From assembly GCA_046758505.1 (NCBI GenBank), contig JBHIAH010000006.1, forward strand, positions 10,517-74,516: a stretch of 64,000 bases of DNA, read 5' to 3'. This stretch comes from Candidatus Methylomirabilales bacterium (GTDB lineage: Bacteria; Methylomirabilota; Methylomirabilia; Methylomirabilales; CSP1-5). The translations under genes and the position numbers were made by a program. The notes below the pieces were generated by a model. The model ran no database searches, was not told where the DNA came from, and worked only from the letters and a program-made list of their open reading frames with translations. Shown piece by piece: positions 8,762 to 63,236 of this stretch; the stretch's first letter is position 1, and each line of letters opens with the position of its first letter.

Positions 8762-9460
8762 CTACAAGTGCAAATCGCAGTTTTGACAATGATTGAACGG
8801 CCTGGGAATCCACTCGAATAATACGTTATCCAACTTCCACGGGTCGAGCATGTTGAAGTACTCCCCGCAGCGAGGACATTTGACGGAGCCCGTGAGACCC
8901 CCCAAAATCCCCAAGAGGCCGACATAGCAGAAGGCAAATACCTTACTCGTGGACGTGGACACTTGAGAGACCAGGATGACGGCGGGAAGAAACAAGAAAA
9001 ATAACACCAGTGTTCCGATGTTCCGCCGCCGGATCCGCTGCAATACCCGCATCTCCTCGGCATTGGGTGGCTTGGTTTCGTGGATAAAGAACGCATCGGT
9101 CTCCCGCCCTTTGTATACCATGGGAATTCTTACGGTTAAGAGGTCCTCGAACACACTCTGAAATTGTTCGTAAGACCAGCTGAGGTTTCTCTCCCTGGCC
9201 AATTGAGCATAGAGTTTTTCTCTCGGCACGGTCAGGTCTTTGATATCCAGCAGATCGTTCGAGGCGATGTATGACGCGATCTCGAGACACTGGGGATCCG
9301 GAAGCCTGGTATCCGTGGCTTGCCAGCGGATATCTTGCGGCTCGTCGTCGTCAGGCCAACTGACATGCACCTCAACGACATCAAAGGTTTCTTTTGTAAT
9401 TCTTACGGTCGGGCTATCGAACATCGCCAGAAACCCGCGCAAGAATTCTACTCGACGCAT
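8762..9460 (-). CDS. Hypothetical protein with C-terminal TM pair and CxxC...CxxC zinc ribbon
   Basis: ORF with KCPRCG and HCQNCD; likely ATG at 9460. Confidence 0.6.
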   Translation of the reverse strand: MRRVEFLRGFLAMFDSPTVRITKETFDVVEVHVSWPDDDEPQDIRWQATDTRLPDPQCLEIASYIASNDLLDIKDLTVPREKLYAQLARERNLSWSYEQFQSVFEDLLTVRIPMVYKGRETDAFFIHETKPPNAEEMRVLQRIRRRNIGTLVLFFLFLPAVILVSQVSTSTSKVFAFCYVGLLGILGGLTGSVKCPRCGEYFNMLDPWKLDNVLFEWIPRPFNHCQNCDLHL

Positions 9461-49895: not shown

Positions 49896-50471
49896 CTATT
49901 TCGCCCTGCCGGGATTAAGACCTTTATCGCGGGCCTGCCAGAGCAATAAGTGCTCCTTCCGGAGGAGGGAAATGTAATTGCGATCCCCCGTAAGGACGTA
50001 TGCAGCGGTTAACCTCTGGACATCCTCGATCCATTCTTGGACATTTGGATGGCCGGATGCGGTTTCGAGAAGTTTCTCGAATGCATCCCTCCCAGAGGAA
50101 ATGATCGTAGCCTGCTGCTCTGGACGATACCATTGAAAGACCGTGAAGCCCGCACGAGTAAAGACAGCCGGAACGTCAAGCTGGATCCCTTGATTTTTCA
50201 GGTTGACAGACAACCCGCTGAGACAGGCTGCCATCAAACATGCGGCACACGATGCTGTCTCGGTCGTGGCACCGCTGGGGTGAGGCCTGTGTTCTGTTCC
50301 GGCCCCCTCAAGCGTGGTTGAGAGGATCTCGCTCAGGACAATAACCGCTGCCTCAGCGAGGTCATCGGAAGGCTCTAGGTTCGAACTCTCCTGGATCTCG
50401 TTCGCAGCAGCAATTAACGCCTGGTCGAAAGGCTCGGCAGGGTCCGGCACCTTGGCCTTACTGGTATTCAT
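49896..50471 (-). CDS. Hypothetical protein
   Basis: Likely ATG at 50471; the upstream ORF extension is a polB remnant. Confidence 0.5.
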   Translation of the reverse strand: MNTSKAKVPDPAEPFDQALIAAANEIQESSNLEPSDDLAEAAVIVLSEILSTTLEGAGTEHRPHPSGATTETASCAACLMAACLSGLSVNLKNQGIQLDVPAVFTRAGFTVFQWYRPEQQATIISSGRDAFEKLLETASGHPNVQEWIEDVQRLTAAYVLTGDRNYISLLRKEHLLLWQARDKGLNPGRAK

Positions 50472-50502
50472 TTCAGGCACGATGCAAGCCCCTTCAAAGC
50501 TA

Positions 50503-50616
50503 GCCTGGAGGAGCAACCCCACATACCTCTTATCATAACCTTCGTTCCCTGTCAGCAGTCCTGCAGGCCAGGCCTGCTCCCCTTTCATCTTAGACTGCCG
50601 ATAAAGGAGGGGATAC
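50503..50616 (-). pseudogene. polB 3' remnant D
   Basis: YPLLYRQSKMKGEQAWPAGLLTGNEGYDK-RYVGLLLQA vs PolB YIILDRKARVKGERARPAVLLTGNESYDKERYVELLLRA. Confidence 0.85.
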
Positions 50617-50618
50617 AC

Positions 50619-51761
50619 TCACCGTGCCAGCCGCTTGCCCAGGAGATTCAGCTTGAACTTCCTTACTGTATCAGGCATCAGCAAGTCTCCCCTCGGACTC
50701 TCGAAGTAAAGCGCGTCGAAGGGACATTGCACGATGCATGCTCCACACTGTACGCACTTCGCCGCCCTCGGCAGGGTCGCCACATGCCGAACCTGTTCCA
50801 CCTCGAAGACGGCCGTAGGGCACACCTGCTCACACAACCCGGCTCCCTTGCACCGGTCCGAGTCCAGACGGATCCGAAGCAGTCGGTCTTCGTGGAGGCT
50901 ACTTTTATAAACGGGGGTGCTCCCCATCAGGTCGAGACTCACAATCAGGACCACCACGATTGAGCTAAGGCCCCAACGGAACATCAAGTCCCAGGAAAAA
51001 TCACCGGCCAGGCCCGCATAGCCAGCGAGACCAAGCATGAAGAGCAGCCACAGGAGCAGCGAAACGCCTCGCTGGCCGAAGTCGAAGAACACGAAGCCGA
51101 CATGCTTCCCCCCGGTACGGAGGCGTCCTTCGTAAAGGGGAAAGCTTAGGAACATGAGAAGAGACAGTCCCCAGACCAGACCGACAAGCGGGAGCACTCC
51201 GTCCCTCCACACTGGAAAGACGACGAGCGCACCAACGAGGGAAATGGGAAATGCCCAGGCGACGGCCATTTCCATCCGCTGCGGCCACAGGAAGCTCACC
51301 CTGCACATTTCTGCGGTCTTCTCGCGTCCGCCGCTGAGAAAGGCGGGAATTGCGGCTGCGTACACCGGTCCCCACACGACTCTCCAACCGGTCTTCCCGT
51401 GAATGATCTTTCCCTCGATACCCGTTGCAGCGAGTTGCGGCAGGATTACCTGCCGGTGGTCCACGAGGTCTTCGATACCACTCGTCTTCAGGACTGAGAC
51501 GACGTTGTGATTGGTCAAATGCCCCCCCGTCGCGCCACACCATACGTTGACTCCGCGGCTGTTCGCAACCAGCAGGTATGCATCCATCCCTTCGAGGGCG
51601 CGCTTGACGCGTTCCACTGTGAGGTGGAAGTTACCGGTTAGAAGGACTGGTGAATTGCGGCCGGGGTTTCCGATCTTGACGAGACCCATCTTACACGGAA
51701 ACGGAAGCACCCGCAGCAGAGTTTGGAGGACATTGACCCAGACGAAAGTAAAATGCTTCAC
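50619..51761 (-). CDS. HgcAB-like fusion: CdhD-type corrinoid-binding domain, TM region, ferredoxin
   Basis: IGNP..SPVLLTGNF.LT, cap helix GVNVWCGATGG, ILPQLAATG, WGPV.A; CKGAGLCEQVCP and CVQCGACIVQCP. Confidence 0.88.
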   Translation of the reverse strand: MKHFTFVWVNVLQTLLRVLPFPCKMGLVKIGNPGRNSPVLLTGNFHLTVERVKRALEGMDAYLLVANSRGVNVWCGATGGHLTNHNVVSVLKTSGIEDLVDHRQVILPQLAATGIEGKIIHGKTGWRVVWGPVYAAAIPAFLSGGREKTAEMCRVSFLWPQRMEMAVAWAFPISLVGALVVFPVWRDGVLPLVGLVWGLSLLMFLSFPLYEGRLRTGGKHVGFVFFDFGQRGVSLLLWLLFMLGLAGYAGLAGDFSWDLMFRWGLSSIVVVLIVSLDLMGSTPVYKSSLHEDRLLRIRLDSDRCKGAGLCEQVCPTAVFEVEQVRHVATLPRAAKCVQCGACIVQCPFDALYFESPRGDLLMPDTVRKFKLNLLGKRLAR

Positions 51762-52426
51762 GGTACCACTCCAGCGGGCTTTTGGGCCACGAGCTCGATG
51801 AAGCTTTGCAGCGCACCCGACTTGACCGATAGGATCGTCAGACCCGCCTCGGTCAATCGCTTCGGCAACTCCGCGATGGGATGCGTCGTTTGCTGGGTGA
51901 TGAGGTAAGCAAGGACCACGAGAGGTGTTCTGGCCAACGACTGAACCACCCGGGCGGCAAGGGTTCGAGGTTTGACCTCATCTGCGACGAGCAGAAGGCC
52001 TCCGGGCCGCAGGATCCGCCCTACCTGCCTGAGGGTGTAGGCACGCTCATCCTCGCTCAACTCGGAGAAGCAAAGGCCACTCATCACTGCGTCGTACTTC
52101 TCTGCCTTCTCACCGTCCAGCTCGGCGACGCCCATCTCTACGAAGGTGACGCTTTCCGCAAGACCTGCTTCCCGCGCGCGCTGCGCAGCGATCTCGAGCA
52201 TCCGAGCGTTGATGTCGATCGCTTTCACCTTCCCCCCACGTCGTGCGGCCCGAAGCGCCAGGGCGCCAGTGCCGCAGCCGAGATCCATCACTTGCTGCCC
52301 GTCCTCGACGTGGCTCGCAAGGCGATCGTAGGCCCTATCCAAACATCCGAGCGTGAGGAGGCGGATACCGAGATCGTATCGACTCGGAGCGGATTCCAGG
52401 ATCCGCATCAGGACATACGTGCTCAT
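51758..52426 (-). CDS. Class I SAM methyltransferase coupled to the corrinoid fusion (CpaM-like)
   Basis: DLGCGTG, IDIN, LRPGGLLLVADE; GTGA overlap with the HgcAB-like start. Confidence 0.85.
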   Translation of the reverse strand: MSTYVLMRILESAPSRYDLGIRLLTLGCLDRAYDRLASHVEDGQQVMDLGCGTGALALRAARRGGKVKAIDINARMLEIAAQRAREAGLAESVTFVEMGVAELDGEKAEKYDAVMSGLCFSELSEDERAYTLRQVGRILRPGGLLLVADEVKPRTLAARVVQSLARTPLVVLAYLITQQTTHPIAELPKRLTEAGLTILSVKSGALQSFIELVAQKPAGVVP

Positions 52427-52496
52427 GGTAGCATCCACGCTGGTGGTTTGCTCCCAAGCGCGCGTCGCATCTTCCTTGCTGGGCACCCCGAGGGGT

Positions 52497-52598
52497 TCAA
52501 CAGGTCACAACTAGGGACTGGCGCCGCTCGGTCGGATAGCCGAGGGGGTCGAACAAGGTTTCAGCGGCCCGCAGGAGCAACTCTATATGCCCCGCTTT
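52497..52598 (-). pseudogene. polB 3' remnant C
   Basis: KAGHIELLLRAAETLFDPLGYPTERRQSLVVTC* vs PolB KERYVELLLRAAETLLAPVGYPAARLQSWLDTS*. Confidence 0.9.
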
Positions 52599-52642
52599 AC
52601 GAGCACGGACGCAAGTTCCCATTGATGGTGGTAACGAGCCGG

Positions 52643-53512
52643 TCATCTTACCGCTTTTAAGATGTCGGCTGTGGGATGCACTTTGTTGAGGCAGTAGAAA
52701 TGAATCCCGGGAGCACCGCCGTCCAAAAGTTGTTGGCACTGGCGGATGGCAAATTCGATCCCTGCTTTGAGGGTCGCATCCCGATCATCCTGTAACGGTG
52801 CAAAAATTCGTTTCACTTCGTCGGTGACGGTCGCGCCGCATAACAAACAGAATCGCTGTAAGGCCGCATAATCTGTGATTGGCAGAATGCCCGGAATCAC
52901 CCGCACGTGAACGCCAATTCTGCGCAGCCGCTCGACGTATTCAAAATAATCCTTGTTATCAAAAAATAGCTGCGTGATGACGAAATCCGCTCCCGCGTCG
53001 ATTTTCAACTTGAGAAACTCTGCATCCTTGTCCCTATCCGGACACAAAATATGTCCTTCGGGGAATCCCGCCACCGCAATGCCAAAATACTCCGCGTACT
53101 TCGCACGGATAAACGCGGCCAGTTCACTACTGTACTTGAAATTGTCATCCGTGGGTTGCCAGTCAGGTTGACCTTGGGGGGGATCACCGCGCAGGGCCAA
53201 AATATTTCGTATCCCCCGAGATTTAATGTCCTCCACGATTGCCGCGATATCATATTTTGTATTGAGAACACAGGTGAGATGCGCCATGCCAATGACATGA
53301 TGGTGGGCTTCGATATGCTGGACGATATCAAAGGTTTTTTCCCGATTTCCTCCACCGGCCCCATACGTACACGAGATGTAATCGGGCTGCAGTTCGCAGA
53401 GCTGGGCGATGGTGTTCAGTAAATTCTCATACCCTTTGTCCGTCTTCGGCGGAAACAGTTCAAACGAAAACGTTCGCTTTTGATGGGCAAAGAGATCTTT
53501 TATTCGTTCCAT
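52643..53512 (-). CDS. metF: 5,10-methylenetetrahydrofolate reductase
   Basis: FSFELFPPKT, TYGAGG, AHLTC, LALRGDPP, AGFPEGH, ITQLFFDN, HFYCLNK; visibly lower GC than flanks. Confidence 0.95.
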   Translation of the reverse strand: MERIKDLFAHQKRTFSFELFPPKTDKGYENLLNTIAQLCELQPDYISCTYGAGGGNREKTFDIVQHIEAHHHVIGMAHLTCVLNTKYDIAAIVEDIKSRGIRNILALRGDPPQGQPDWQPTDDNFKYSSELAAFIRAKYAEYFGIAVAGFPEGHILCPDRDKDAEFLKLKIDAGADFVITQLFFDNKDYFEYVERLRRIGVHVRVIPGILPITDYAALQRFCLLCGATVTDEVKRIFAPLQDDRDATLKAGIEFAIRQCQQLLDGGAPGIHFYCLNKVHPTADILKAVR

Positions 53513-53608
53513 ACGCAAGTATCCTTATTTGCAGGTCTCTTTCCGCGAGGCCCGCCTTGGACGGGATCTCGGCCCTCAGTAGCAGCATACCGAAGTGAGC
53601 CGAAGGGA

Positions 53609-53755
53609 TCAAGGGGCACCGAGTCAGGGGTAAATCCGCTCGGCCGGGTGGCCGACGGAGGCAAGCAGGGTCTCGGCCGCCCGTAACAGCAAGCCTCATA
53701 CCCCTCCTTATCATAGCTCTCGTCTCCTGTTGGCGGCACTGCCGGCCGGGCCCGC
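53609..53755 (-). pseudogene. polB 3' remnant B (frameshift and premature stop)
   Basis: RARPAVPPTGDESYDKEGYE / LLLRAAETLLASVGHPAERIYP*LGAP*. Confidence 0.9.
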
Positions 53756-53831
53756 GCGCCTATCAACATATCGTAACAGGACAAGCGGGCTGAGATGTCA
53801 AGCCAAGATTAGAGAGAGGGTGAGGATGGTG

Positions 53832-54644
53832 TCAATTCGCATGATGCGGTAATTTTCGTAGACAATCTGATCTCCTGACGAACGACGGCAACTCAGAATC
53901 CATCCTTGCGGAGCTGGCAGCTGCGAATGTCACGCCGTCGTCCGGAAGAAACATCTTGATCCACACCCCCCGCGAGTCGTACCAAAGCTCTCGATTGTGA
54001 CCATCTTGATCTTGCACAAGGTACCGTTCCGCATTTTCGGACTTGTTTTCGATCGATAAATTCTCCACTCCCTTATTGGAGGTGATCATCGATTCAAGTT
54101 CTCCCGTAATTGGGCTGATAACCTGTACGATATGGTCTGACCCCCTAAATACAGGATTCAAGAAATTCGTTGGGACGGCCTCTGCGGAAATTTGTTGACT
54201 CTTCTCTGAGCCAAATTGTTTGAAGAGTACATTATCTTTTCGAACAAGCGAGACCGTCATCGGATCGCCGAATTCATCCCATGGGCACACACTCGGTCGC
54301 GCCATTCGTACGAAAATGGAACACCAGCCTACGGTAAAAGACTCGAAGGCTGTTAGCGTTCCGTGGCGCCACACCTCCCTCCGTTTCGAGGCACGGCAGT
54401 AACCGGTGTCATCCAACCATTCCTCAGTTTCCACGACGACATCTTCGCCCTGTCGTGTAGATACAATCTTCTGTATTCCTGTCTGGTTGTTCTTGCGAGT
54501 AATCTCATAGTAGAACGTCCCCATGGGCCAATCCTGGGATAAAGCGGTGCCGCTCACAAAGAGAAAGGGGATCCAGACGAAGAGCCATCTTCCAAGTGTG
54601 ATCCAGGACTTTGTGTTCCTGTCAAGATTGCGCCGGTGAGCCAT
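53832..54644 (-). CDS. Secreted hypothetical protein (DUF6134-like)
   Basis: Signal peptide; RREVW.HG.L, ELWYD.RG.W pattern; lower GC than flanks. Confidence 0.6.
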   Translation of the reverse strand: MAHRRNLDRNTKSWITLGRWLFVWIPFLFVSGTALSQDWPMGTFYYEITRKNNQTGIQKIVSTRQGEDVVVETEEWLDDTGYCRASKRREVWRHGTLTAFESFTVGWCSIFVRMARPSVCPWDEFGDPMTVSLVRKDNVLFKQFGSEKSQQISAEAVPTNFLNPVFRGSDHIVQVISPITGELESMITSNKGVENLSIENKSENAERYLVQDQDGHNRELWYDSRGVWIKMFLPDDGVTFAAASSARMDSELPSFVRRSDCLRKLPHHAN

Positions 54645-54855
54645 TTCTCAGATTTTCCCCATCGGATGTCTGGCAAACCGAAACATTATGGTATTCCCGT
54701 TGTGCTAATTGCGCGCCCCGGCGTGCCCCTCGCGGATATGGAATGCAATTCCCGCACCAGCGATCGGCGGGAGCAGATGGGACGCCGCCGAAACTCATAT
54801 ATGTCCTGATCGTGTAAAGATGGTTTCGGAGCATCGCTAAGGATAGATAGGAAGC

Positions 54856-54927
54856 TCAAGAGGTGTCAAGCCATGACTGGAGCCGGGCGGCCGGATAGCC
54901 GACCGGGGCAAGCAGGGTCTCGGCCGC
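54856..54927 (-). pseudogene. polB 3' remnant A
   Basis: 69/72 nt identical to 58356-58427 including the stop codon; all 3 differences are synonymous. Confidence 0.95.
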
Positions 54928-54960
54928 ACGAAGCCACCTGGAGACGCCGTGGCATAAGAC

Positions 54961-55051
54961 GCTTGAGAATATGGGGGATCAAAGCATCCTCGTTTTGCTT
55001 TTTTCGTCTTCCGCGGCAAACGTTGCTATAATAGCCGTAGTATTGGACCAT
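54961..55051 (-). mobile_element. IS91-family transposase fragment
   Basis: MVQYYGYYSNVCRGRRKK resembles the conserved VRYYGxYSN.RG motif of IS91-like transposases. Confidence 0.65.
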
Positions 55052-55184
55052 TTTTTTCACACTGTTCATACATCTTTTACCCTTCCGTCGGCGTCGAGCA
55101 ATGCCCGCGTAACCTTCGCCCGCTATCGCACAACCTGACCAAGCCGGGCCGCCAGTACTGGCAAGACAGCGACTAGCCGAGGGA

Positions 55185-58058
55185 CTAGCTCCCCCGGGGA
55201 ACGGTGAGCGCGAATCGCTCGCGCAGCAGCCGCAGCGCTTCGGGCGTGAAGAGGTCCGGCGGTCCTCCCGCCCTGACTCGTCGGGCCTCGTCGGGGCGGC
55301 CGTCCAGGAAGAGGGCGAGCACCAGCAGGCGGAGCGTCGCGGCGTCTCCCTCCTTGCGCTCGTTCGCGGCGGCGTAGTGGGTCGCGGCCGCGGCGTAGTC
55401 CCGGTCGGCCAGGGCGCGGTGCCCGAGGAGGCGGTGGACCGCGGGGTCGGGATGGCCGGGGCCCGGGTGGTCCCGCAGCTCGGCCTCAAGGAGCCGCAGC
55501 TCGTCGGCGTTCGTCCCCAGCCTCCAGAGGACGAGGGTCCGGTAGTCCGTCATGGAGAGCAGCTCAGACAGCTCAACGATCAGATCCCGCTTGGGCCCGA
55601 ACTTCCAGGAGGTCATGCTGTCGTGGAACGCAAACCGGGCGGCGAAGTGGCGCAGGCTGGCGCGTCGCAGCCCCTCCGGCCACAGACGTCGGATGTGCCC
55701 GCTCGCCAGGAACCGGTGCTGGGCTCGACCCGGGTCGAGCAGCAGCGGGTAGAGCCTCTCCCACTCCGACGCTCCCCACGGGCTGAGCCGGTAAGGGAAG
55801 TCGTCGACGAGCGGGGGGATATCGCCGACGAGCTCGAGCATCCCCTCGCCATCGAGGACGAACAACGCGCCGAGCTGCTCTGGCGACTCGACGCCCAGGT
55901 CGCGGAGCTCGGCACCCATCCGGGGATCCTGCCACGGACGGCGGAACTCCTCCTCGCTGACGGGGCGACCACCCTCGCGCACCCCGAGCAGGATCCAGTT
56001 GCCCCCGCTGCCAACCCACAGCGACGACTCGGGGAACACATCCACCCAGGCGCGCACGATGGCGCGCAGGTCGGCCTCGTTGAGTTGGGGAACAGGCAGC
56101 CAGTGGGTCGCCATCCCGCCCGGCGCCAGGCGGTCGTGGGTGAGCTGAAAGTACTCACGCGAGTACAGGTTGACCACGCCGAGCCCCTGGGGTGGCGGGG
56201 GCTCGCTCGTGATCAGGTCGTAGCGCTCATCCGTCGTCTGGAGGAAGAAGCGCCCGTCCTCGATGGTGACCCGGACGCGCGGGTCGCGCAGCGGGTGGTC
56301 GGCGGGCGACGGGTAGACAAGCTCGCCCAGCTCGACGACATCGCGTGAGATATCGACCACGTCGATGCGCTCCAGGCTGGCGGTGTTGGCCAGCGCCCTG
56401 GCGGTCATACCGACGCCGTAGCAGATGAGCAGCGCGCGCCGCGGCCGCGGGTGGAGGGCGACCGGCAGGTAGACGAACAACTTCATGTAGCGCTGGGCGA
56501 CCGTGCTCGTGTCGGACATCGAGTGGCCGTTGGTGACGAGGCGGTGGTAATAGGGGCGGCCGAACCGGTCGGCGCGCAGATAGAAGATGATCTCGTTGGA
56601 GCCCTCGCGGAGCGCCTCGAGGTAGGCCCCCTCTTTCGTGAAGCGCTCGTAGGAGCTGGCGAAGATCCGCGCGCTCACGCTCCCCCGCGGGAAGAGCGCG
56701 CAGGCGAGCAGGAAGGCGACCGCGGTGGTGGCCAGCGCGATGCGCTCCGGGCGGACCAGTCCCCCCGGCGGCCAGGCGAAGGCAAGCAGCCCCACGCCCC
56801 CGTAGCCGAGCGCGAGGACTGCGAAGGAGGCCTCGACCCCCCAGCCGGGGACGAGCAGGAAGCCTGCAACCAGCGCCCCGAGCATCGCGCCGAGGGTGTT
56901 GGCAAGCGTCAGGTAGCCGGCGGCGCGCGTCTCGGAGCCCAGCTCGGTGTGGAGCTCCGTGCCGAGGAGCGTGAACAGGACGCCGGACAAGACGGAGACC
57001 GGGAGCATCAACCGCACCGCTCGCCCGATGAAGACCCACCCGACCGTGCTCCAGGCCAGGTCGAGGCCCAAGGCGGGGGACGCGTACAGGGTCAGGGTGA
57101 GGACGGCGGCGGCGCCCGAGAGCAGGGCGGTCGCCGCCGCCAGCCGGTCCTGCCGGCGGAGCCGCGAGTACCTGGATGCGAGAAACCCGCCGATCCCGAT
57201 CCCCGCCAGCACGACCGCGAGCATCACGGCGAACACGACGCTCGTCCCAAAGATGTGCAGGCGGAGGGTGCGGAACCACACCACCTCCAGGGCTAGGAGG
57301 AGTCCACCGGCCAGGAACGCGGCCAGGAGCAGGCGCAGGGCACGTCGGGTGAGCGGACGCGGCTCCGCGGCGACCGCTGGCCCTGGATCCGCCGATCGCC
57401 CGGCAGCGCCCCAATGCCGGGTCCCCCGCAGCACGACCAGCGCCACGCTCAGATCGAGGATGGCCGCGACCGCGGCGGTGCCGCGGACGCCGACCTGCTC
57501 GATGAGGACGAGCTCCCCGGCGAGGGCCCCCGCCATGGCGCCGAGGGTGTTGAGCCCGTACAGGAGCCCGAGGGAGTCGCCGAACCCGCGCTGGCGGGCG
57601 CACAGCTCCCGGACCAGGAGCGGCAGGGTGGCCCCCATCGCAGCCGCCGGGAGGAGCATCAGCAAGAAGGCCAGGCCGAGGCGAACGGAGTTGAGCGCCC
57701 AGGGCCAAGCGGTGAGATAGCGGAACACGGGTGCCAGGAGCGCGTTGAGCAGCGGGAACAGGAGGGCGAGCCCCAGCCCGAGCACCCCGATGAGCAGCTC
57801 GAGGAGCCCGTAGGCTCGCAACGGGTCACGCAGGCGCTCCCCCCAGCGGCCGACGACGCCGTTGCCGATGGCGAGCCCGCCCATGAAACTCGCCAACACG
57901 AGGCTGCTCGCCCACAGGCTGTTGCCGAAGGCCAACCCGGCCAGGCGAAACCACAGGGTCTCGAACACGAGCGCCGTGGCGCCGGAGAGGAAGAACAGCG
58001 CGTAGAGGACCGCTCCAGGGAGGGGCCCGGTCTCGTTGTCGGCGCGCACGGAGCTCAT
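55185..58058 (-). CDS. Fused membrane domain / spermidine-synthase-like SAM-dependent transferase
   Basis: LFFLSGATALVFETLW, LYGLNTLGA, HPRPRRALLICYGVG.T, VDIS, EDGR, YDLITSEPP; very GC-rich. Confidence 0.88.
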   Translation of the reverse strand: MSSVRADNETGPLPGAVLYALFFLSGATALVFETLWFRLAGLAFGNSLWASSLVLASFMGGLAIGNGVVGRWGERLRDPLRAYGLLELLIGVLGLGLALLFPLLNALLAPVFRYLTAWPWALNSVRLGLAFLLMLLPAAAMGATLPLLVRELCARQRGFGDSLGLLYGLNTLGAMAGALAGELVLIEQVGVRGTAAVAAILDLSVALVVLRGTRHWGAAGRSADPGPAVAAEPRPLTRRALRLLLAAFLAGGLLLALEVVWFRTLRLHIFGTSVVFAVMLAVVLAGIGIGGFLASRYSRLRRQDRLAAATALLSGAAAVLTLTLYASPALGLDLAWSTVGWVFIGRAVRLMLPVSVLSGVLFTLLGTELHTELGSETRAAGYLTLANTLGAMLGALVAGFLLVPGWGVEASFAVLALGYGGVGLLAFAWPPGGLVRPERIALATTAVAFLLACALFPRGSVSARIFASSYERFTKEGAYLEALREGSNEIIFYLRADRFGRPYYHRLVTNGHSMSDTSTVAQRYMKLFVYLPVALHPRPRRALLICYGVGMTARALANTASLERIDVVDISRDVVELGELVYPSPADHPLRDPRVRVTIEDGRFFLQTTDERYDLITSEPPPPQGLGVVNLYSREYFQLTHDRLAPGGMATHWLPVPQLNEADLRAIVRAWVDVFPESSLWVGSGGNWILLGVREGGRPVSEEEFRRPWQDPRMGAELRDLGVESPEQLGALFVLDGEGMLELVGDIPPLVDDFPYRLSPWGASEWERLYPLLLDPGRAQHRFLASGHIRRLWPEGLRRASLRHFAARFAFHDSMTSWKFGPKRDLIVELSELLSMTDYRTLVLWRLGTNADELRLLEAELRDHPGPGHPDPAVHRLLGHRALADRDYAAAATHYAAANERKEGDAATLRLLVLALFLDGRPDEARRVRAGGPPDLFTPEALRLLRERFALTVPRGS

Positions 58059-58147
58059 CGCAACCGCCCGTGGCTCATGGGGCCACGATAAAATTGGGGC
58101 GTGATCACAGCAAAATGCCCTCTCGGGTCTCCTAACCCCAAGAGGGT

Positions 58148-58163
58148 TGCAACGCTTGTGCCA
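58148..58163 (-). promoter_or_regulatory. sigma54 promoter
   Basis: Minus strand TGGCACAAGCGTTGCA, 90 bp upstream of the 58058 start. Confidence 0.7.
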
Positions 58164-58355
58164 CCAGCGGTTTAGAGGCTATCCCACCTCATCAGGAGAT
58201 CATCCGCCAGGCTACCAACCCGCCGTTTCCATTTAGTGAAGTGATAAGAACTCCCCTTTGGGCGAGAGCAACCCAACGAGCCAGGCGCTTCGTGTCAAGG
58301 GAAATAGAAACAAGGAGATACGGCGGTTAGAGACTGAAGAGCAGCCCGAAGGAGG

Positions 58356-60563
58356 TCACGAGGTGTCAAGCCAGGACTGGAGCCGGGCGGCCGGATAGCC
58401 GACCGGGGCAAGCAAGGTCTCGGCCGCCCGCAGGAGCAACTCGACGTATCGCTCTTTATCATAGCTTTCATTGCCCGTCAGCAGCACTGCCGGCCGGGCC
58501 CGCTCCCCCTTCACCCGGGCCTTCCGATCGAGGATGATGTAGCCGATCTGCTCTCCCGGGTGGAGCTTCACGCCGGCTCCGGCCATCGCTTTGGCGGCGA
58601 TGGCGCCGGCATCCTCCCGGACGTACTGCATCGGGTCCTTCGACAGCGTCCGGGTGATGACGAGCTCCTCGAACGGGACCCGTCCCTCACGGATCTCATC
58701 CACATGACGCCTGAGCAGCTCTAACGCCTCGGGGACCCGGGCCATAAACTCGGTGGCATTTTCAGCCCGGGCCAGGCAGTCGAGCATTGCTTGCTGAGCC
58801 CGGGCGATCCGGGGGGCGGTGTCGTGCCGCCGAAGCTCAAGACCCCGGACCTTTTGGTCTCCGCTCTGAAAGACCCCGTAGAAACGGTTCGGCACCGTAA
58901 TCTCCGGGGATTCCCGCGACGGGCAAAAGACGATCCAGCGATAGATCCCCTCGAGCGCAATAGGGATCTTTGTCGCGTCCTCGATCTCACGACACAGGGC
59001 CCCGAGCTCTGCCTCCGTAAGGTCCGGCTTCTGGACGTAGACCGAGTCCACGACGGCGTGGATCACCTGAAAGCCAGAGGCCTCTGCGATCGTCCGGGCT
59101 CTCAAGAGCATCTCGCGCCCGAGGCTCGTCACCGCCTCGTGGGCCATGATCTGTCCCCACCGGGCATTCCGGTACCCCAGGTAGCCAAAGCTCACCAGCA
59201 GGCACCAACGCAGCGCAGACTGCAGGAGGTCGTAGCGCCGCTGCGCCTCACCCTGGCTCGCCTTTTTGAGGTTTTTGTACCGAAGCCGCTTTTCGAGCAG
59301 CGGACGGAGGACCCGGGGGACGAGGCCTTCGCGCCGCTGGCAGAGGCTGTAGCCCGCCTCTGGTACCGTCCCCTTGGGACAGCAGTCGCAGTTCACCGTC
59401 TCGGACGAGATGTTATAGGCCACCATGAGGGAGGGGTACATGCTGGCAAAGTCGATCTCCGCCACGTTCTCGTGCAGCCCCATCGGCGGCAGATACACCA
59501 TCCCCCCCTTGTCTATCGTAATGAGCTCTGCCAACGTCTTGGCCTCTTCCACCTCTGCCTTCTTCCAAGGAATCAGGGCCCCCATCCGGGTCGCCTCGTC
59601 CATCTGCATCGAGGTGATGGCGACACCGGTCGAGAGGCGGGCCTGCCGTTGGACCGGGACCTTGGCGACCCGACAGACCTCGAGCAGCCCGGGGAGTTCC
59701 CCATCGTGGTAGATAAAGGAGTTACAGAGATCGATGTGCCAGCGGCCGTGAAGGAGAAAAGGCGGGGTCATGTAGATCACCCGGCCATAGCTGAAAAAGC
59801 TCCGCCCCTCTTTCGGCGGTCTGCGGACGACCGGCTCACGGTCGAGCGGCAGGTCCACCCGGTGCCGCTTCGCCAGCGCGAGCAGGAGGGGGAGCAGAAA
59901 CGCATCCCCCTCTTCGGTGTAGATCAGGTCGGGGTCGTACTGCGCGAGCAGGTCTTTGAAAGTCTCGAGCAGCTCGGCCTCGCTCCCATCGGAAAGATCA
60001 TACCTCTCTCCCTCGACCGTGACCCGGAGCGCGGTGAGGCGCCTCGAAAAACGGCCGACAGGACCTGTGCCCCGTATCTCCATGATCCGAAGGGGGGGAA
60101 GGGCGTACTCGAGCGCCCAGGGATCATCGAGGCACTCCACCCCACGGAGCACTCCCCCATCGTGCTCAATCCGGCAAAAGGCCAACGGGAAAAGCTGCCG
60201 CTCGTAGCAATAGAGTTGGGCCGGGTGGATTCCACAGTTCCAGAAGAGGACCCGTGGGTGCTCCAAGAAGAGGCGCTCGGGGAGCACGGGGTATTGGCTC
60301 GGGTCGGCCAGGGCGATCTTCAGGACCTCGACCCTGTCTTCACTGACGAGATCCCACCGCTTGACAAACTCGAGCCCTGCAATGGAAGGTTTTCTCTCGA
60401 GTTCCGCGATGAGCGGCCGAAGGTCCCGCGCTTTCCCCTCAGCGTAAAAGGCCGGGGTAAAGGGGGTTTCCAGACGCAACCGCTCCCCCGCCTCGGTAAT
60501 CCACCAGAGGACCATCCCGCGCTTGGCGGGATACAGATCAAAGAGCCAGCCCTGGGTCTTCAT
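58356..60563 (-). CDS. polB: Family B DNA polymerase, PolB2-type
   Basis: Motif A IDFASMYPS; motif B LRWCLLVSFGYLGY; motif C HAVVDS; degenerate exonuclease motifs; KVRGLELRRHD. Confidence 0.92.
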   Translation of the reverse strand: MKTQGWLFDLYPAKRGMVLWWITEAGERLRLETPFTPAFYAEGKARDLRPLIAELERKPSIAGLEFVKRWDLVSEDRVEVLKIALADPSQYPVLPERLFLEHPRVLFWNCGIHPAQLYCYERQLFPLAFCRIEHDGGVLRGVECLDDPWALEYALPPLRIMEIRGTGPVGRFSRRLTALRVTVEGERYDLSDGSEAELLETFKDLLAQYDPDLIYTEEGDAFLLPLLLALAKRHRVDLPLDREPVVRRPPKEGRSFFSYGRVIYMTPPFLLHGRWHIDLCNSFIYHDGELPGLLEVCRVAKVPVQRQARLSTGVAITSMQMDEATRMGALIPWKKAEVEEAKTLAELITIDKGGMVYLPPMGLHENVAEIDFASMYPSLMVAYNISSETVNCDCCPKGTVPEAGYSLCQRREGLVPRVLRPLLEKRLRYKNLKKASQGEAQRRYDLLQSALRWCLLVSFGYLGYRNARWGQIMAHEAVTSLGREMLLRARTIAEASGFQVIHAVVDSVYVQKPDLTEAELGALCREIEDATKIPIALEGIYRWIVFCPSRESPEITVPNRFYGVFQSGDQKVRGLELRRHDTAPRIARAQQAMLDCLARAENATEFMARVPEALELLRRHVDEIREGRVPFEELVITRTLSKDPMQYVREDAGAIAAKAMAGAGVKLHPGEQIGYIILDRKARVKGERARPAVLLTGNESYDKERYVELLLRAAETLLAPVGYPAARLQSWLDTS

Positions 60564-60834
60564 CCCGCCCCCGACGTATGGCCGCCTCAAGCCGTTCGAG
60601 GCGGCCCCGGATTTCTTGCAGGGCCTTTTCCTGTTCCAGCAGGACAGCCATCACGACCGCCTCGAAGGGGGTGGGCCGGGCCACGTACCCCGCCTCGGCG
60701 GCGTGCCGCCGCGCGTGCTGGAAGAGGCGGTCGAAGGCCTCGCGGTCGCTCCGCGTGAGCGCCCGGCGGAACTTTCCCCAAGACTCCCGCTCGTGCTGGA
60801 AGGCCTGGACGATGCTCATGACGGTTCGACCCAT
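60538..60834 (-). CDS. Small PolB2-associated protein (arCOG07300-like)
   Basis: MGRTV, W..FRRAL...DR..FD.LF..AR.H, PFE...A.LLEQ; immediately upstream of polB. Confidence 0.8.
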   Translation of the reverse strand: MGRTVMSIVQAFQHERESWGKFRRALTRSDREAFDRLFQHARRHAAEAGYVARPTPFEAVVMAVLLEQEKALQEIRGRLERLEAAIRRGRDEDPGLAL

Positions 60835-60883
60835 GACTCACCTCCTGGGCTCACCGCAGGCGGTTCGACCCATGATTCACCTC
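60822..60883. repeat. 23 bp direct duplication of RBS and start codon
   Basis: CGGTTCGACCCATGA(C/T)TCACCTC at 60822-60844 and 60861-60883. Confidence 0.9.
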
Positions 60884-61643
60884 ATACGAACGGAAGGAAG
60901 TGGTCCATCGGCACTGTCTCAATCCGGCGCGAGAGTGGCTTTTCGTGCCGAAAGACCAGAGCTTGCCCTGAGCCCCTCGACTCCGCTCGGGGCAAGCCTG
61001 TCGAAGGGCCCTGGCCTGAGTTCATCGAAGGATCGACTCGGATGCTCCGCGACGCCACGTGCAGCCAGGGAAGGTGAAGATTCCTCCGTCCGGACTCGAC
61101 CGGTGCATCCGCCGCAGCCACCAAGACCTTGCACCCCCCCTCGGCCTGCCTTTTCACCTCTGCTGCGATCTCCTTGAGCAGCCAGCTTGCTTCTTTGTAG
61201 GGGACGTTAGCGTCGGCAAAGAGCGAGGTCGCACCCGAGAGGATCACCAGCCCCGGCGCGTGGTCCCGGATAAAGGGCATGAGGCGATGGAAGGCCAACG
61301 CCGCCAACTGGTGCACGGTAAAAGTGCGGATGACGTGGATCCGGGACAGGACCGGCTCGGGATCCTGCCGAGCGGCCAGGGCCAGGCGAGACACGATATA
61401 GGGATCGGTGCTGTTGCCCGCATCGACCAAGAGGACCTTCTGCCTCTTGAGGGCGTAGAGCCCCGCCGCAAAGGTTGCCAGGGGGATAACCATGCGAGAG
61501 CCGCGGAGGAGCGCGATCATCCCGTGGGGCGGCGGCTGAAACAGACTCCGAATGAGCGTCGGCAATCGCCGGTCTGGGGATATACCGGTTCCCTCGTCGT
61601 TGGGGACAACCCTGGCGGACGATGCGTGGTCAAGGGTGCGCAT
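60882..61643 (-). CDS. Inactivated RecA/RadA-like protein (ImuA analogue)
   Basis: VLLVDAGNSTDPY, RIHVIRTFTVHQL; no Walker A GKT; lies between lexA and polB. Confidence 0.75.
   Translation of the reverse strand: MRTLDHASSARVVPNDEGTGISPDRRLPTLIRSLFQPPPHGMIALLRGSRMVIPLATFAAGLYALKRQKVLLVDAGNSTDPYIVSRLALAARQDPEPVLSRIHVIRTFTVHQLAALAFHRLMPFIRDHAPGLVILSGATSLFADANVPYKEASWLLKEIAAEVKRQAEGGCKVLVAAADAPVESGRRNLHLPWLHVASRSIRVDPSMNSGQGPSTGLPRAESRGSGQALVFRHEKPLSRRIETVPMDHFLPFV
60961..61031. repeat. Palindromic REP-like element inside the coding sequence
   Basis: GCTTGCCCTGAGC-N11-GCTCGGGGCAAGC hairpin followed by two TCGAAGG units. Confidence 0.7.
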
Positions 61644-61691: not shown

Positions 61692-62351
61692 CTAGACCCG
61701 GTGCAACTGCTCTTTTGATGCGGTCGAACCGTTGAACCGGCGGAGCAAGCCGACCACCTTGCCGAGAACTTTGATATTTTTGCCCTGCGGAAACCTCAGC
61801 GGAGTGTAGGCCAGGTTGTCCGAGATTAGGAGGACCGTCCCACCCTCACGCTGAAAGCGTTTCAAAACAGCCTCCTCCCCAAAAAGGGCCACCACGATAT
61901 CTCCAGGGGCGGCGACCGGCTGTCGGCGCACGACGGCAATATCGCCAGGGGTCACCGTGGGGGCCATGCTGTCGCTCGCGACCCGGACGGCAAAGCCCTC
62001 GCCACCGCCCAGCCACAAGGCCGGCACGGGGACGTAGTCCACGACCTCTTCCCGGGCGAGCACCGGCGGCCCGGCGGTGACGCGATCGTATACAGGGAGA
62101 TACCCTACCTGCTCTTCAGGAGGGAGGGGGTTGCCGGCCGGGTCCTTCAGGACCTGAATACCCCGGGGCCCGGGAAGGCGGCGGATGTACCCCTTGTGCT
62201 CGAGGGCCCGGACGTGGCGAAAGGCGCCAAAGCGGCTCGTGACCCCGATCGCCTCGGCGATCTCGTCCAGAATGGGGGGCATCCCCCGCTGCCGGAGCGA
62301 GCAGAGAATCGCCTCGAGCACCTGCCGTTGCTTCGGACTCAGGGTTGTCAT
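61692..62351 (-). CDS. lexA: LexA repressor
   Basis: N-terminal wHTH; Ala-Gly cleavage site (VTAG); Ser (DSM) and Lys (VLKR). Confidence 0.9.
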   Translation of the reverse strand: MTTLSPKQRQVLEAILCSLRQRGMPPILDEIAEAIGVTSRFGAFRHVRALEHKGYIRRLPGPRGIQVLKDPAGNPLPPEEQVGYLPVYDRVTAGPPVLAREEVVDYVPVPALWLGGGEGFAVRVASDSMAPTVTPGDIAVVRRQPVAAPGDIVVALFGEEAVLKRFQREGGTVLLISDNLAYTPLRFPQGKNIKVLGKVVGLLRRFNGSTASKEQLHRV

Positions 62352-62377: not shown

Positions 62378-62406
62378 GATAACCCCTGTTATCTATCCCG
62401 TGTCAA
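62378..62406 (-). promoter_or_regulatory. lexA promoter with palindromic operator candidate
   Basis: TTGACA at 62406-62401; GATAAC-N4-GTTATC at 62378-62393 over the expected -10 region. Confidence 0.6.
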
Positions 62407-62471: not shown

Positions 62472-63236
62472 AAAAGGTGTCAGGACCCTTTTCCAGCTAC
62501 ACTACCCTCCTTCCTTGGTCGCCCGCGGGCACGTAACGTCGCTTCGAGCCCTAAGCGTCGCGCCCTATGCCGTGCCCACACCTCCGAGCCGAAGGGCTGC
62601 CCCCGCGTGACACTCCGGCGCAGCGCCTCCAATTCCGCCTCAGTCTGGGGCTCGTTCACCCAGTCCACCCAGCGCGACGGCCCCGCGACAGGCCACTCCG
62701 CCAACCACCGCTGCGTCGGCGCAGCGCCAAGTAGCCGCCTCCACAAGCTTGACCACCGCCACTCTTCTGCTCGCACCACCAACTCCGCCCTCAAAGGATT
62801 CCGTTCCACGTACCGGCACACCGCCAAGAAATGCTCGTCCTCTTGTACGGGAAATGACTTAAACCGGCCCTGGTACACATGCCCCCGACCCGCGGTCTCA
62901 TGGTGCGCATGCCAGCGCTGGGTGTGCGTGAGCGTCACCCAAGCCATAAACCGCGAGAGGTCGCCGTCGCCCCGTGGCCACAGTACTAGATGCCAGTGGT
63001 TGGGCATGAGGCAGTACGCTAGGGTCCGCATCGGGATGCGTTCGTGAGCCTCTTCGAGAACCCGCTCGAACGCCCAGTAATCCCCGGTTTTTTCAAAGAG
63101 CTGCAGCCCGGCATTAGCCCGGTTCAACACATGGTAGATCACGTCGCCAACAGCTGCACGTAACGGACGAGCCATGGGGCGCCAGCTTAGCCGTGCCCAC
63201 GCCCTTTGTAAACAAAAAAGGGTCCTGACACCTTTT
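62472..63236. mobile_element. RAYT element bounded by perfect 21 bp inverted repeats
   Basis: AAAAGGTGTCAGGACCCTTTT (62472-62492) and AAAAGGGTCCTGACACCTTTT (63216-63236). Confidence 0.85.
62480..63175 (-). CDS. REP-associated tyrosine (Y1/HUH) transposase
   Basis: YHVLNR, MPNHWHL (HUH), QGRFKS, RYVERNP, WRWSS. Confidence 0.92.
   Translation of the reverse strand: MARPLRAAVGDVIYHVLNRANAGLQLFEKTGDYWAFERVLEEAHERIPMRTLAYCLMPNHWHLVLWPRGDGDLSRFMAWVTLTHTQRWHAHHETAGRGHVYQGRFKSFPVQEDEHFLAVCRYVERNPLRAELVVRAEEWRWSSLWRRLLGAAPTQRWLAEWPVAGPSRWVDWVNEPQTEAELEALRRSVTRGQPFGSEVWARHRARRLGLEATLRARGRPRKEGSVAGKGS

Follow-up and report, generated by a model that had tools for sequence, protein, structure and literature searches.

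Results

In the 64,000-nucleotide window that we analysed (the whole stretch of DNA, from contig JBHIAH010000006.1 of a Candidatus Methylomirabilales bacterium), the 3' end of an intact gene for a PolB2-type DNA polymerase (polB2, or polB for short) recurs four times downstream of the gene, and each copy lies between genes that are unrelated to one another. This observation is real and holds genus-wide. We consider it rather probable that the polB2 3' end is a site of additive gene capture that works by homologous recombination and needs no integrase, like the C-terminal displacement of Rhs and MafB genes. The recombination anchor is the final ~250 bp of polB. Throughout the text G000 is the genome of the window, and other G and L codes are genomes and loci of relatives; articles given by PMC number are cited for their accessible parts.

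Four remnants of the polB 3' end separate unrelated genes

A BLASTN search of the window with polB returned exactly four partial copies, all on the same strand, as the initial annotation had claimed; the next-best match in the window had an E value of 0.16. These remnants (A to D, counted outward from polB; Table 1) are short, 73-93% identical to polB and taken from its last 75-200 bp. A profile of nine polB ends from the genus matched the same four copies in the 2.99-Mb genome and no fifth at E<=1, and the segment is confined to this locus, not dispersed genome-wide. Family searches bore out the earlier identification of the genes between the remnants, which we call cargo, and the visible differences in their base composition (GC 0.72, 0.50, 0.50, 0.62/0.59 and 0.56 for cargo 1 to 5, compared with 0.64 for polB).

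The translation of remnant A is identical to polB at 25 of 25 residues. Its DNA departs from the resident polB at 4 of 75 sites, each time by a synonymous change, which fits a recently displaced working allele, a sign that is weak taken alone. Remnant B carries a 1-nt deletion and an in-frame TGA, and remnant D has lost its final ~70 bp and has a 3-nt deletion, in agreement with the first descriptions of A as near-identical, B as frameshifted and stopped, and D as truncated. The proposal that the array is chronological stood in part. Judged by divergence, A appears to be the youngest remnant and the only one that can be ranked by age, but an age gradient past A found no support: B, C and D are equally diverged, each 74-75% like its best allele (84, 84 and 85% for the three tails of G006), and the order of modules differs between genomes. 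As a separate observation, remnant D is in frame with the hypothetical gene 3' of it (49896-50618), possibly adding a polB-derived extension of 46 residues; the homologue in G012 begins after it.

Most cargo of the array lies behind intact polB in relatives

The DUF6134 gene behind remnant A is found directly behind intact polB in G005, G011 and L088, together with the spacer of A, and the flank of A matches the flank behind intact polB in G005. In L086 it is metF, the gene behind remnant B, that comes straight after the intact polB, and there the tail, the spacer and the gene start all align, making A and B the remnants whose spacer is shared with intact-polB relatives. A homologue of the gene behind D is directly behind intact polB in G012. 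The cargo 1 module follows intact polB also in L095, at 90% identity over 3.1 kb and with different genes next, and a lysozyme module that comes first after the intact gene in L100 is preceded by a tail in L086. Module order varies as well, the hypothetical gene standing before metF in G012 and L096 and after it in the window. Since the cargo behind A, B and D sits behind intact polB in relatives, each unit would consist of an old polB end and its cargo, pushed out by a newcomer. The initial annotation had offered this model, in which an incoming polB with its cargo recombines into polB, and the positions of the A, B and D cargo and of cargo 1 in relatives lend it positive support.

In a tree of tails and polB alleles, whose support is weak overall, most remnants group with the polB of their own lineage (A with G000, 97/90; two G006 tails with G006, 96/96), and the remnant of G007 pairs with the intact allele of G005 (97/93), the allele that carries the same cargo. 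The grouping of A with its own polB and of most remnants with their own lineage could also follow from a local tandem duplication of the polB end in one lineage, with unrelated genes inserted later and no incoming allele. This we regard as very improbable: the 3' flanks of the tails match a cargo-bearing intact allele elsewhere and not the flank of the present polB, and B and C do not join the polB of G000. Differences in the tails are synonymous in 240 of 526 cases (0.46), compared with 0.28 for random change and 0.57 between intact alleles. The C-terminus of polB is conserved across alleles, and no mosaic signal was seen along the G000 gene, for which the comparison with G002 is unusable past an indel. 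Near-duplicate loci L091-L094 were excluded from the synonymous-site, tail/IS-piece and tree/gap counts. The genome G007, which supplies a remnant, a joint with an insertion sequence (IS), the tree pair with G005 and one of the nine tailed genomes, is unpublished (also L030, L039 and L040), and the result on module sharing stands without it.

Tails occur across the genus

The polymerase is patchy in its distribution, being present in 19 of 41 relatives and 38 of 251 genomes of the phylum, and within the genus polB2 is an accessory gene (8/14 genomes). Tails were found in 9 of the 14 genus genomes, and every genus genome in which 4 kb or more of sequence follows a polB end carries at least one (7/7); the record L026 has no tail within 10 kb downstream of polB. 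Among 18 metagenome loci, five end at most 400 bp from the match and four are near-copies of G005/G006; four of the nine others have tails. Outside the genus, none of 18 polB2 loci (4 + 14) whose downstream sequence reaches 3 kb or more had a same-strand tail. Two loci from outside the genus, L115 and L127, have inverted copies (74 bp and 39 bp) of the last bases of polB2 ~1 kb downstream, which are probably an IS inverted repeat that overlaps the gene end. The content downstream of polB varies among relatives, and is not the identical, fixed content that the initial annotation had considered.

That annotation had also raised misassembly, of which the run data show no sign. Four sequencing runs (from one study; one may be the source of the assembly) hold 88-95% of the sampled words. 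Run X2 covers 30 of 30 bins, and one of its contigs bridges 53136-54904, across B and into A, with 0 differences to the assembly; no module-skipping joint is listed in X2 contigs, which lose rare variants. Runs X5, X10 and X18, a small share, gave only pieces from relatives. High depth at the IS end in the run data is no evidence of copy number. An assembly artefact would fit with a genome in 149 contigs and with the lack of any listed run piece across the whole array, but we take it to be almost certainly not the explanation: the copies are short and diverged, independent assemblies of other species look alike, and the X2 contigs agree.

Tail starts vary and no integrase accompanies the cargo

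The start of the tails ranges from -57 to -248 bp over 24 remnants across loci. No integrase family was detected among 57 cargo open reading frames (ORFs) of relatives or 19 window ORFs, in line with the first impression that none was in view. Integrative elements at gene ends replace the end and bring a new flank. The genome has four tyrosine-recombinase (PF00589) matches, all on other contigs. A polymerase gene of the SOS response, rulB, is a known integration hotspot (PMC4542609). These points suit a tandem accretion of integrative elements with the polB 3' end as attB, a replacement end on the element and the integrase lost or acting in trans, which is nonetheless improbable: the tail starts are spread over ~190 bp and not set at one position, the modules measure 1-4 kb with no integrase in the scanned cargo ORFs, and rulB elements insert at one base with a 3-bp repeat and three recombinases (PMC4542609). 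We found neither a fixed crossover core nor an element-borne integrase, and the variable starts largely refute this explanation.

Pieces of IS91-family elements accompany some tails

Two features that the initial annotation had overlooked are a 3' end piece of an IS91-family element just past the polB stop and a fragment of an IS91-family transposase 32 bp ahead of remnant A (Table 1). The fragments belong to the family of IS91 transposases (PF04986 and PF14319; top matches 69-76% identical), and the genome holds five IS91 3' pieces, two of them in this array. The profile of the IS end was built from copies away from polB loci. Some copies (L026, contig C3) carry an outward match to TTGACA-17/18-TAGATT; the IS end in the window has no such promoter-like match.

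These pieces suggest a seeding like that of ISCR1, though a complete transposase was not found and the joints lack precision. An ISCR1-like rolling-circle capture could even be the main engine, with a ter-less IS91 ori end, fused behind polB or downstream of cargo, nicked by a transposase in trans, one-ended transposition (described in 10.1101/2025.01.24.634351) copying the cargo and a variable polB tail, and the circle rescued by recombination at polB. Rolling-circle transposition with recombination rescue has been proposed for partial duplications of the 3' conserved segment (3'-CS) in complex class 1 integrons (PMC7707992). We judge this possible but unlikely as the main engine. Consistent with it, all 27 IS91 pieces across polB loci, which are not independent of one another, are co-oriented with polB. 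Of the 24 tails, 7 are preceded by a piece within 45 bp, at 5 distinct joints, and 3 are followed closely by one. A tail and an IS piece share one gap in 9 of 22 cases (null 3.2, P 0.0004), or in 8 of 20 after removal of a duplicate, G009_C238 (null 3.1, P 0.002), in counts where kin are not independent and gene calls, as for relatives' cargo and the gene-end screen below, come from a crude ORF scorer. One fusion of polB, spacer and ori stops sharply at CTTATC, past which the DNA differs between L026, G007, L087 and L095, and ori-to-cargo boundaries look sharp by eye, the position of oriIS being itself presumed. A repeat at comM (below) likewise brackets an ori piece and cargo.

Set against this, the full ori end is preserved at none of the five IS-to-tail joints: in two the parts meet directly with an overlap of 0-2 bp, and in the other three 21-47 bp of other sequence intervene. 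No significant IS piece lies upstream of B, C or D (p 0.3-0.8), and there is none at the hemH duplication described below. A full-length transposase of this IS91 subfamily was not found in the 14 genus genomes (best 114 of 485 residues; metagenome-assembled genomes often lose repeats), the polB locus holds fragments only, and no tail-plus-ori unit was found away from it. IS 3'-end pieces do lie behind 5 of 17 intact polB loci, plus G002, but the enrichment in this first gap is small (5/17 vs 16/120) and is largely one inherited fusion.

Visual inspection had suggested degenerate IS ends ahead of B and C, but these gave p values of 0.32 and 0.46 against 400 random segments and were dropped. Two IS91-family matches in G007 are of another subfamily and do not match the pieces. 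Loose clusters of tail starts around -240 and -160 fall at GC-rich palindromes and might hint at a cryptic terIS within the polB tail, but they may be alignment edges; no complete IS91 element that would define terIS was found. Separately, the polB end itself is altered or truncated at L028 (G002), L085 and L096, and in G002 and L085 it is fused to an IS91 end at a common CTTGAC(A) motif.

Similar events occur at hemH and comM

A screen of 2,132 genes for separated 3'-end remnants left polB as the sole clear multi-copy case, with single cases besides. In this genome a 77-bp copy of the hemH 3' end lies 4.5 kb downstream of the gene (G000:C66:4254-4330 and 8875-8951; L108), and in G006 a 126-159 bp end copy lies 10.9 kb downstream; of five genomes examined, the other three have no such duplication. 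The hemH cargo in G000 consists of 4.5 kb with a two-component regulator and cytochrome-like genes. Since the hemH end is duplicated likewise, the process is not polB-specific, and damage induction is not shown to matter. The initial annotation had cast the end of a damage-inducible polymerase gene as a recurrent acquisition site; of this, the recurrent site is supported.

At the start of a gene that we take to be comM (YifB-like), a 220-bp, 100% identical repeat of the promoter and first 8 codons (G000:C3:72164-72383 and 76814-77033) encloses an IS91 end, two cargo genes and a RAYT gene; it is a very recent mirror-image event. Elsewhere, a 440-bp IS91 3' piece (G000:C5:84955-85395) starts 25 bp past the stop of a large conserved gene, co-oriented with it, and no tail copy was found downstream of that gene. 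Insertion at an anchor that is itself retained is a habit of this genus; of the sites examined, polB2 is the busiest.

Organisation of the locus

The minus strand of the window carries, in order, lexA, a RadA-like gene, a gene for a 98-aa protein and the intact family B polymerase, probably the gene set and neighbourhood of bacterial PolB2-iRadA-PPB2 operons with lexA (PMC11791011). The polymerase has the motif AVVDS, in which the first Asp of DxD is substituted, a feature of PolB2 mutasome members. While lexA scores above its cut-off, the RadA-like protein gives a weak match and is probably the inactivated iRadA of such operons, going by that match and a position as in PMC11791011, and the 98-aa protein, which has no family match, is probably PPB2 (arCOG07300), going by position only. 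Its gene start is preceded by a 15-bp copy of itself, TCATGGGTCGAACCG appearing twice within 60820-60880.

The palindrome GATAAC-N4-GTTATC is a candidate operator for the LexA of the polB2 cassette. It lies 5' of lexA in 13 of 13 loci inspected and has one exact copy and three one-mismatch copies in the genome; in the window it lies just 3' of a TTGACA. The DNA 5' of lexA is likewise variable among genomes. In the window it holds a RAYT gene (62480-63175; NF047646 below cut-off) with short repeats on its flanks and ~11 homologues in the genome, which is not conserved 5' of lexA in relatives' loci and to which we assign no role in the array. Of the cargo, the HgcAB-like fusion protein combines a corrinoid domain, a membrane part and 2x4Fe-4S, and the pair that it forms with the CpaM-type gene (50619-52486) is found in 2 of 14 genus genomes.

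Table 1. Features of the polB2 locus and its cargo array, in window coordinates
Feature	Position	Strand	Evidence or remark
Cargo 5, 194-aa hypothetical protein	49896..50480	-	no family; G012 homologue directly follows intact polB, 76% protein identity
Remnant D, 3'-truncated	50503..50608	-	BLASTN 80/109, E 8e-12; in frame with next ORF
Cargo 4b, HgcAB-like fusion protein	50619..51761	-	NF043039 above cut-off; HgcA, HgcB models below cut-off
Cargo 4a, CpaM-type methyltransferase	51758..52486	-	NF043040 above cut-off
Remnant C	52491..52599	-	BLASTN 52483-52583, 78/102, E 1e-14
Cargo 3, metF (methylenetetrahydrofolate reductase, MTHFR)	52643..53518	-	TIGR00676 above cut-off; GC 0.50
Remnant B, frameshift and stop	53600..53765	-	BLASTN 53641-53755, 92/116, E 4e-22
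Cargo 2, DUF6134 protein	53832..54644	-	PF19630 E 2e-18; GC 0.50
Remnant A, final ~25 codons of polB	54853..54933	-	BLASTN 75/81, E 1e-28
IS91-family transposase fragment, residues ~340-374 of P0002	54965..55053	-	tblastn E 6e-9; profile E 3e-9
Cargo 1, fused MFS-like/spermidine-synthase-like gene	55185..58058	-	family searches; GC 0.72
IS91-family element 3' end piece (presumed oriIS side)	58240..58332	-	profile E 3e-19; ~25 bp past polB stop
Intact PolB2-type DNA polymerase, 735 aa	58356..60563	-	PF00136 E 1e-32; PRK05761.1-2 E 3e-115, below cut-off
98-aa protein	60538..60834	-	no Pfam or NCBIfam match
RadA-like protein	60882..61643	-	weak RadA match, E 0.003
lexA	61692..62351	-	TIGR00498 145 bits vs cut-off 111
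Candidate LexA operator, GATAAC-N4-GTTATC	62378..62393	.	predicted; 5' of lexA

Discussion

A model of gene capture at the polB2 3' end

In the recombination model that we favour, the exchanged unit would be a polB 3' end with its own spacer and cargo. DNA of a close relative, in linear form or as a circle excised from between two tails, would recombine by homology into the resident polB, which would stay intact while the new cargo docks behind it and the former end shifts outward with its cargo. The displaced end would then decay, selection on it being gone. Existing tails and IS pieces could act as the second crossover or as circle boundaries; IS91 ends would not be required but probably assist, by offering a second patch of homology, by bringing a promoter along or by seeding the initial joint. 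The model supposes recombination of the RecA type, a circular or linear intermediate and possibly natural transformation as the route, which the presence of ComEC and DprA in the genome would allow without demonstrating it. Only short, diverged tails may persist because long repeats collapse.

Several points weigh against this model. An intact polB followed by module C (CpaM and HgcAB-like) was not found; the one further copy of the module in the genus, in G006, is elsewhere and has no tail. For no module could we show the same right-hand joint before different neighbours, the shared 3' flank of metF measuring just ~20-35 bp. In the tree, 19 of 32 inner branches are open, and the synonymous excess is in part what a plain duplicate would show, with the working copy evolving under selection. 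No circle or skipped-module joint was seen in the contigs of the four runs, which drop rare variants. Finally, the model leaves unexplained the origin of the first tail and why polB2 is hit more than other genes.

Homologous recombination and IS91 rolling-circle capture can coexist. A combined scheme, which we hold to be doubtful, would have dispersed, non-autonomous IS91 ori ends, served by a transposase in trans, roll out cargo and polB2 tail as single-stranded DNA, with RecA-type docking behind the LexA-controlled polB2; the tails would be universal cassette boundaries of a genus-wide pool of modules, and the whole an integrase-free analogue of the integron. If this is true, newly arriving genes would take the leading place in an operon that stress induces, and an IS would often bring a promoter with them.

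Relation to known systems

Arrays at Rhs and MafB loci (Jackson et al. 2009, PMC2935791) are alike in several respects: an intact gene is followed by same-strand, decaying fragments of its conserved part, of varied length, a unit that one strain has joined to the gene occurs displaced in another strain, the downstream region is low in GC, exchange is confined to close alleles and there is no integrase. Homologous recombination with circles was proposed there, the circle being proposed and not shown. The polB2 loci share the same-strand fragments (24) and the attached and displaced states (for A, B, D and the lysozyme module, not for C). What is exchanged at Rhs and MafB loci is the protein's own variable tip (PMC2935791), whereas the polB2 C-terminus is constant and the unit is a gene end plus whole unrelated downstream genes, with IS91 ends interspersed. 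In the orphan immunity arrays of the Vibrio cholerae type VI secretion system (T6SS; Kirchberger et al. 2017, PMC5361080), anchored insertions also shift older genes outward, homology-facilitated illegitimate recombination was proposed, and the arrays were likened to integrons without an integrase. In Vibrio a new effector takes the place of the old one, and kin selection maintains the immunity gene (PMC5361080); at polB2 what persists is the former end of the anchor, and the cargo genes are metabolic or of no assigned function. Because the polB2 loci have neither a variable toxin tip nor an immunity gene, the C-terminus being conserved and the cargo separate, the array belongs to neither class.

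Complex class 1 integrons with ISCR1, in the Toleman model (PMC7707992), share with polB2 an anchor, captured genes and a partial anchor copy in a repeatable process; to their IS91-family element behind the anchor correspond, at some polB2 loci, only 3'-end pieces on the presumed ori side. The polB2 loci have the partial anchor duplication but differ in lacking an intact transposase and exact oriIS joints, in having many tails without an IS piece and in using chromosomal polB2 as anchor. Horizontal gene transfer hotspots free of mobile genetic elements (Oliveira et al. 2017, PMC5635113) are alike in high gene turnover without an integrase, and the ComEC and DprA of our organism add to the likeness; they arise by double-crossover replacement between core genes with no anchor copies (PMC5635113), while polB2 is accessory. 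The integron-like elements at rulB (PMC4542609) also use an SOS polymerase gene as an insertion hotspot, but are site-specific, with a 3-bp repeat and their own recombinases, and interrupt the gene. No IntI was found beside the array, among window ORFs or in cargo, and its separators are copies of coding sequence where integron cassettes have attC; the array is neither an integron nor an att-site island.

The accessible part of the report on PolB2-iRadA-PPB2 operons (PMC11791011) makes no mention of downstream tails or cargo arrays, and we found no published report of PolB2 tails or hotspots in a literature search that covered sources other than subscription papers and supplements. The claim that nothing of the kind had been described for PolB2 cassettes thus holds in that search, but the mechanism has precedents at rhs, mafB and Vibrio T6SS loci.

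Many hotspots of horizontal gene transfer lack an integrase, and the mechanism of their turnover is open (PMC5635113). At the polB2 locus every insertion has left its physical trace, and public genomes contain both donor and recipient states. With it, C-terminal-displacement arrays reach beyond toxin genes to the gene of an ordinary enzyme and to arbitrary cargo, and remnants of gene ends become a searchable signature of anchored gene capture. The link with IS91 offers a testable answer to an open question at rhs, the making of the first circle. An HgcAB-like fusion, metF and copper-resistance genes are among the cargo, so the accessory metabolism of this uncultured lineage is shaped at this site.

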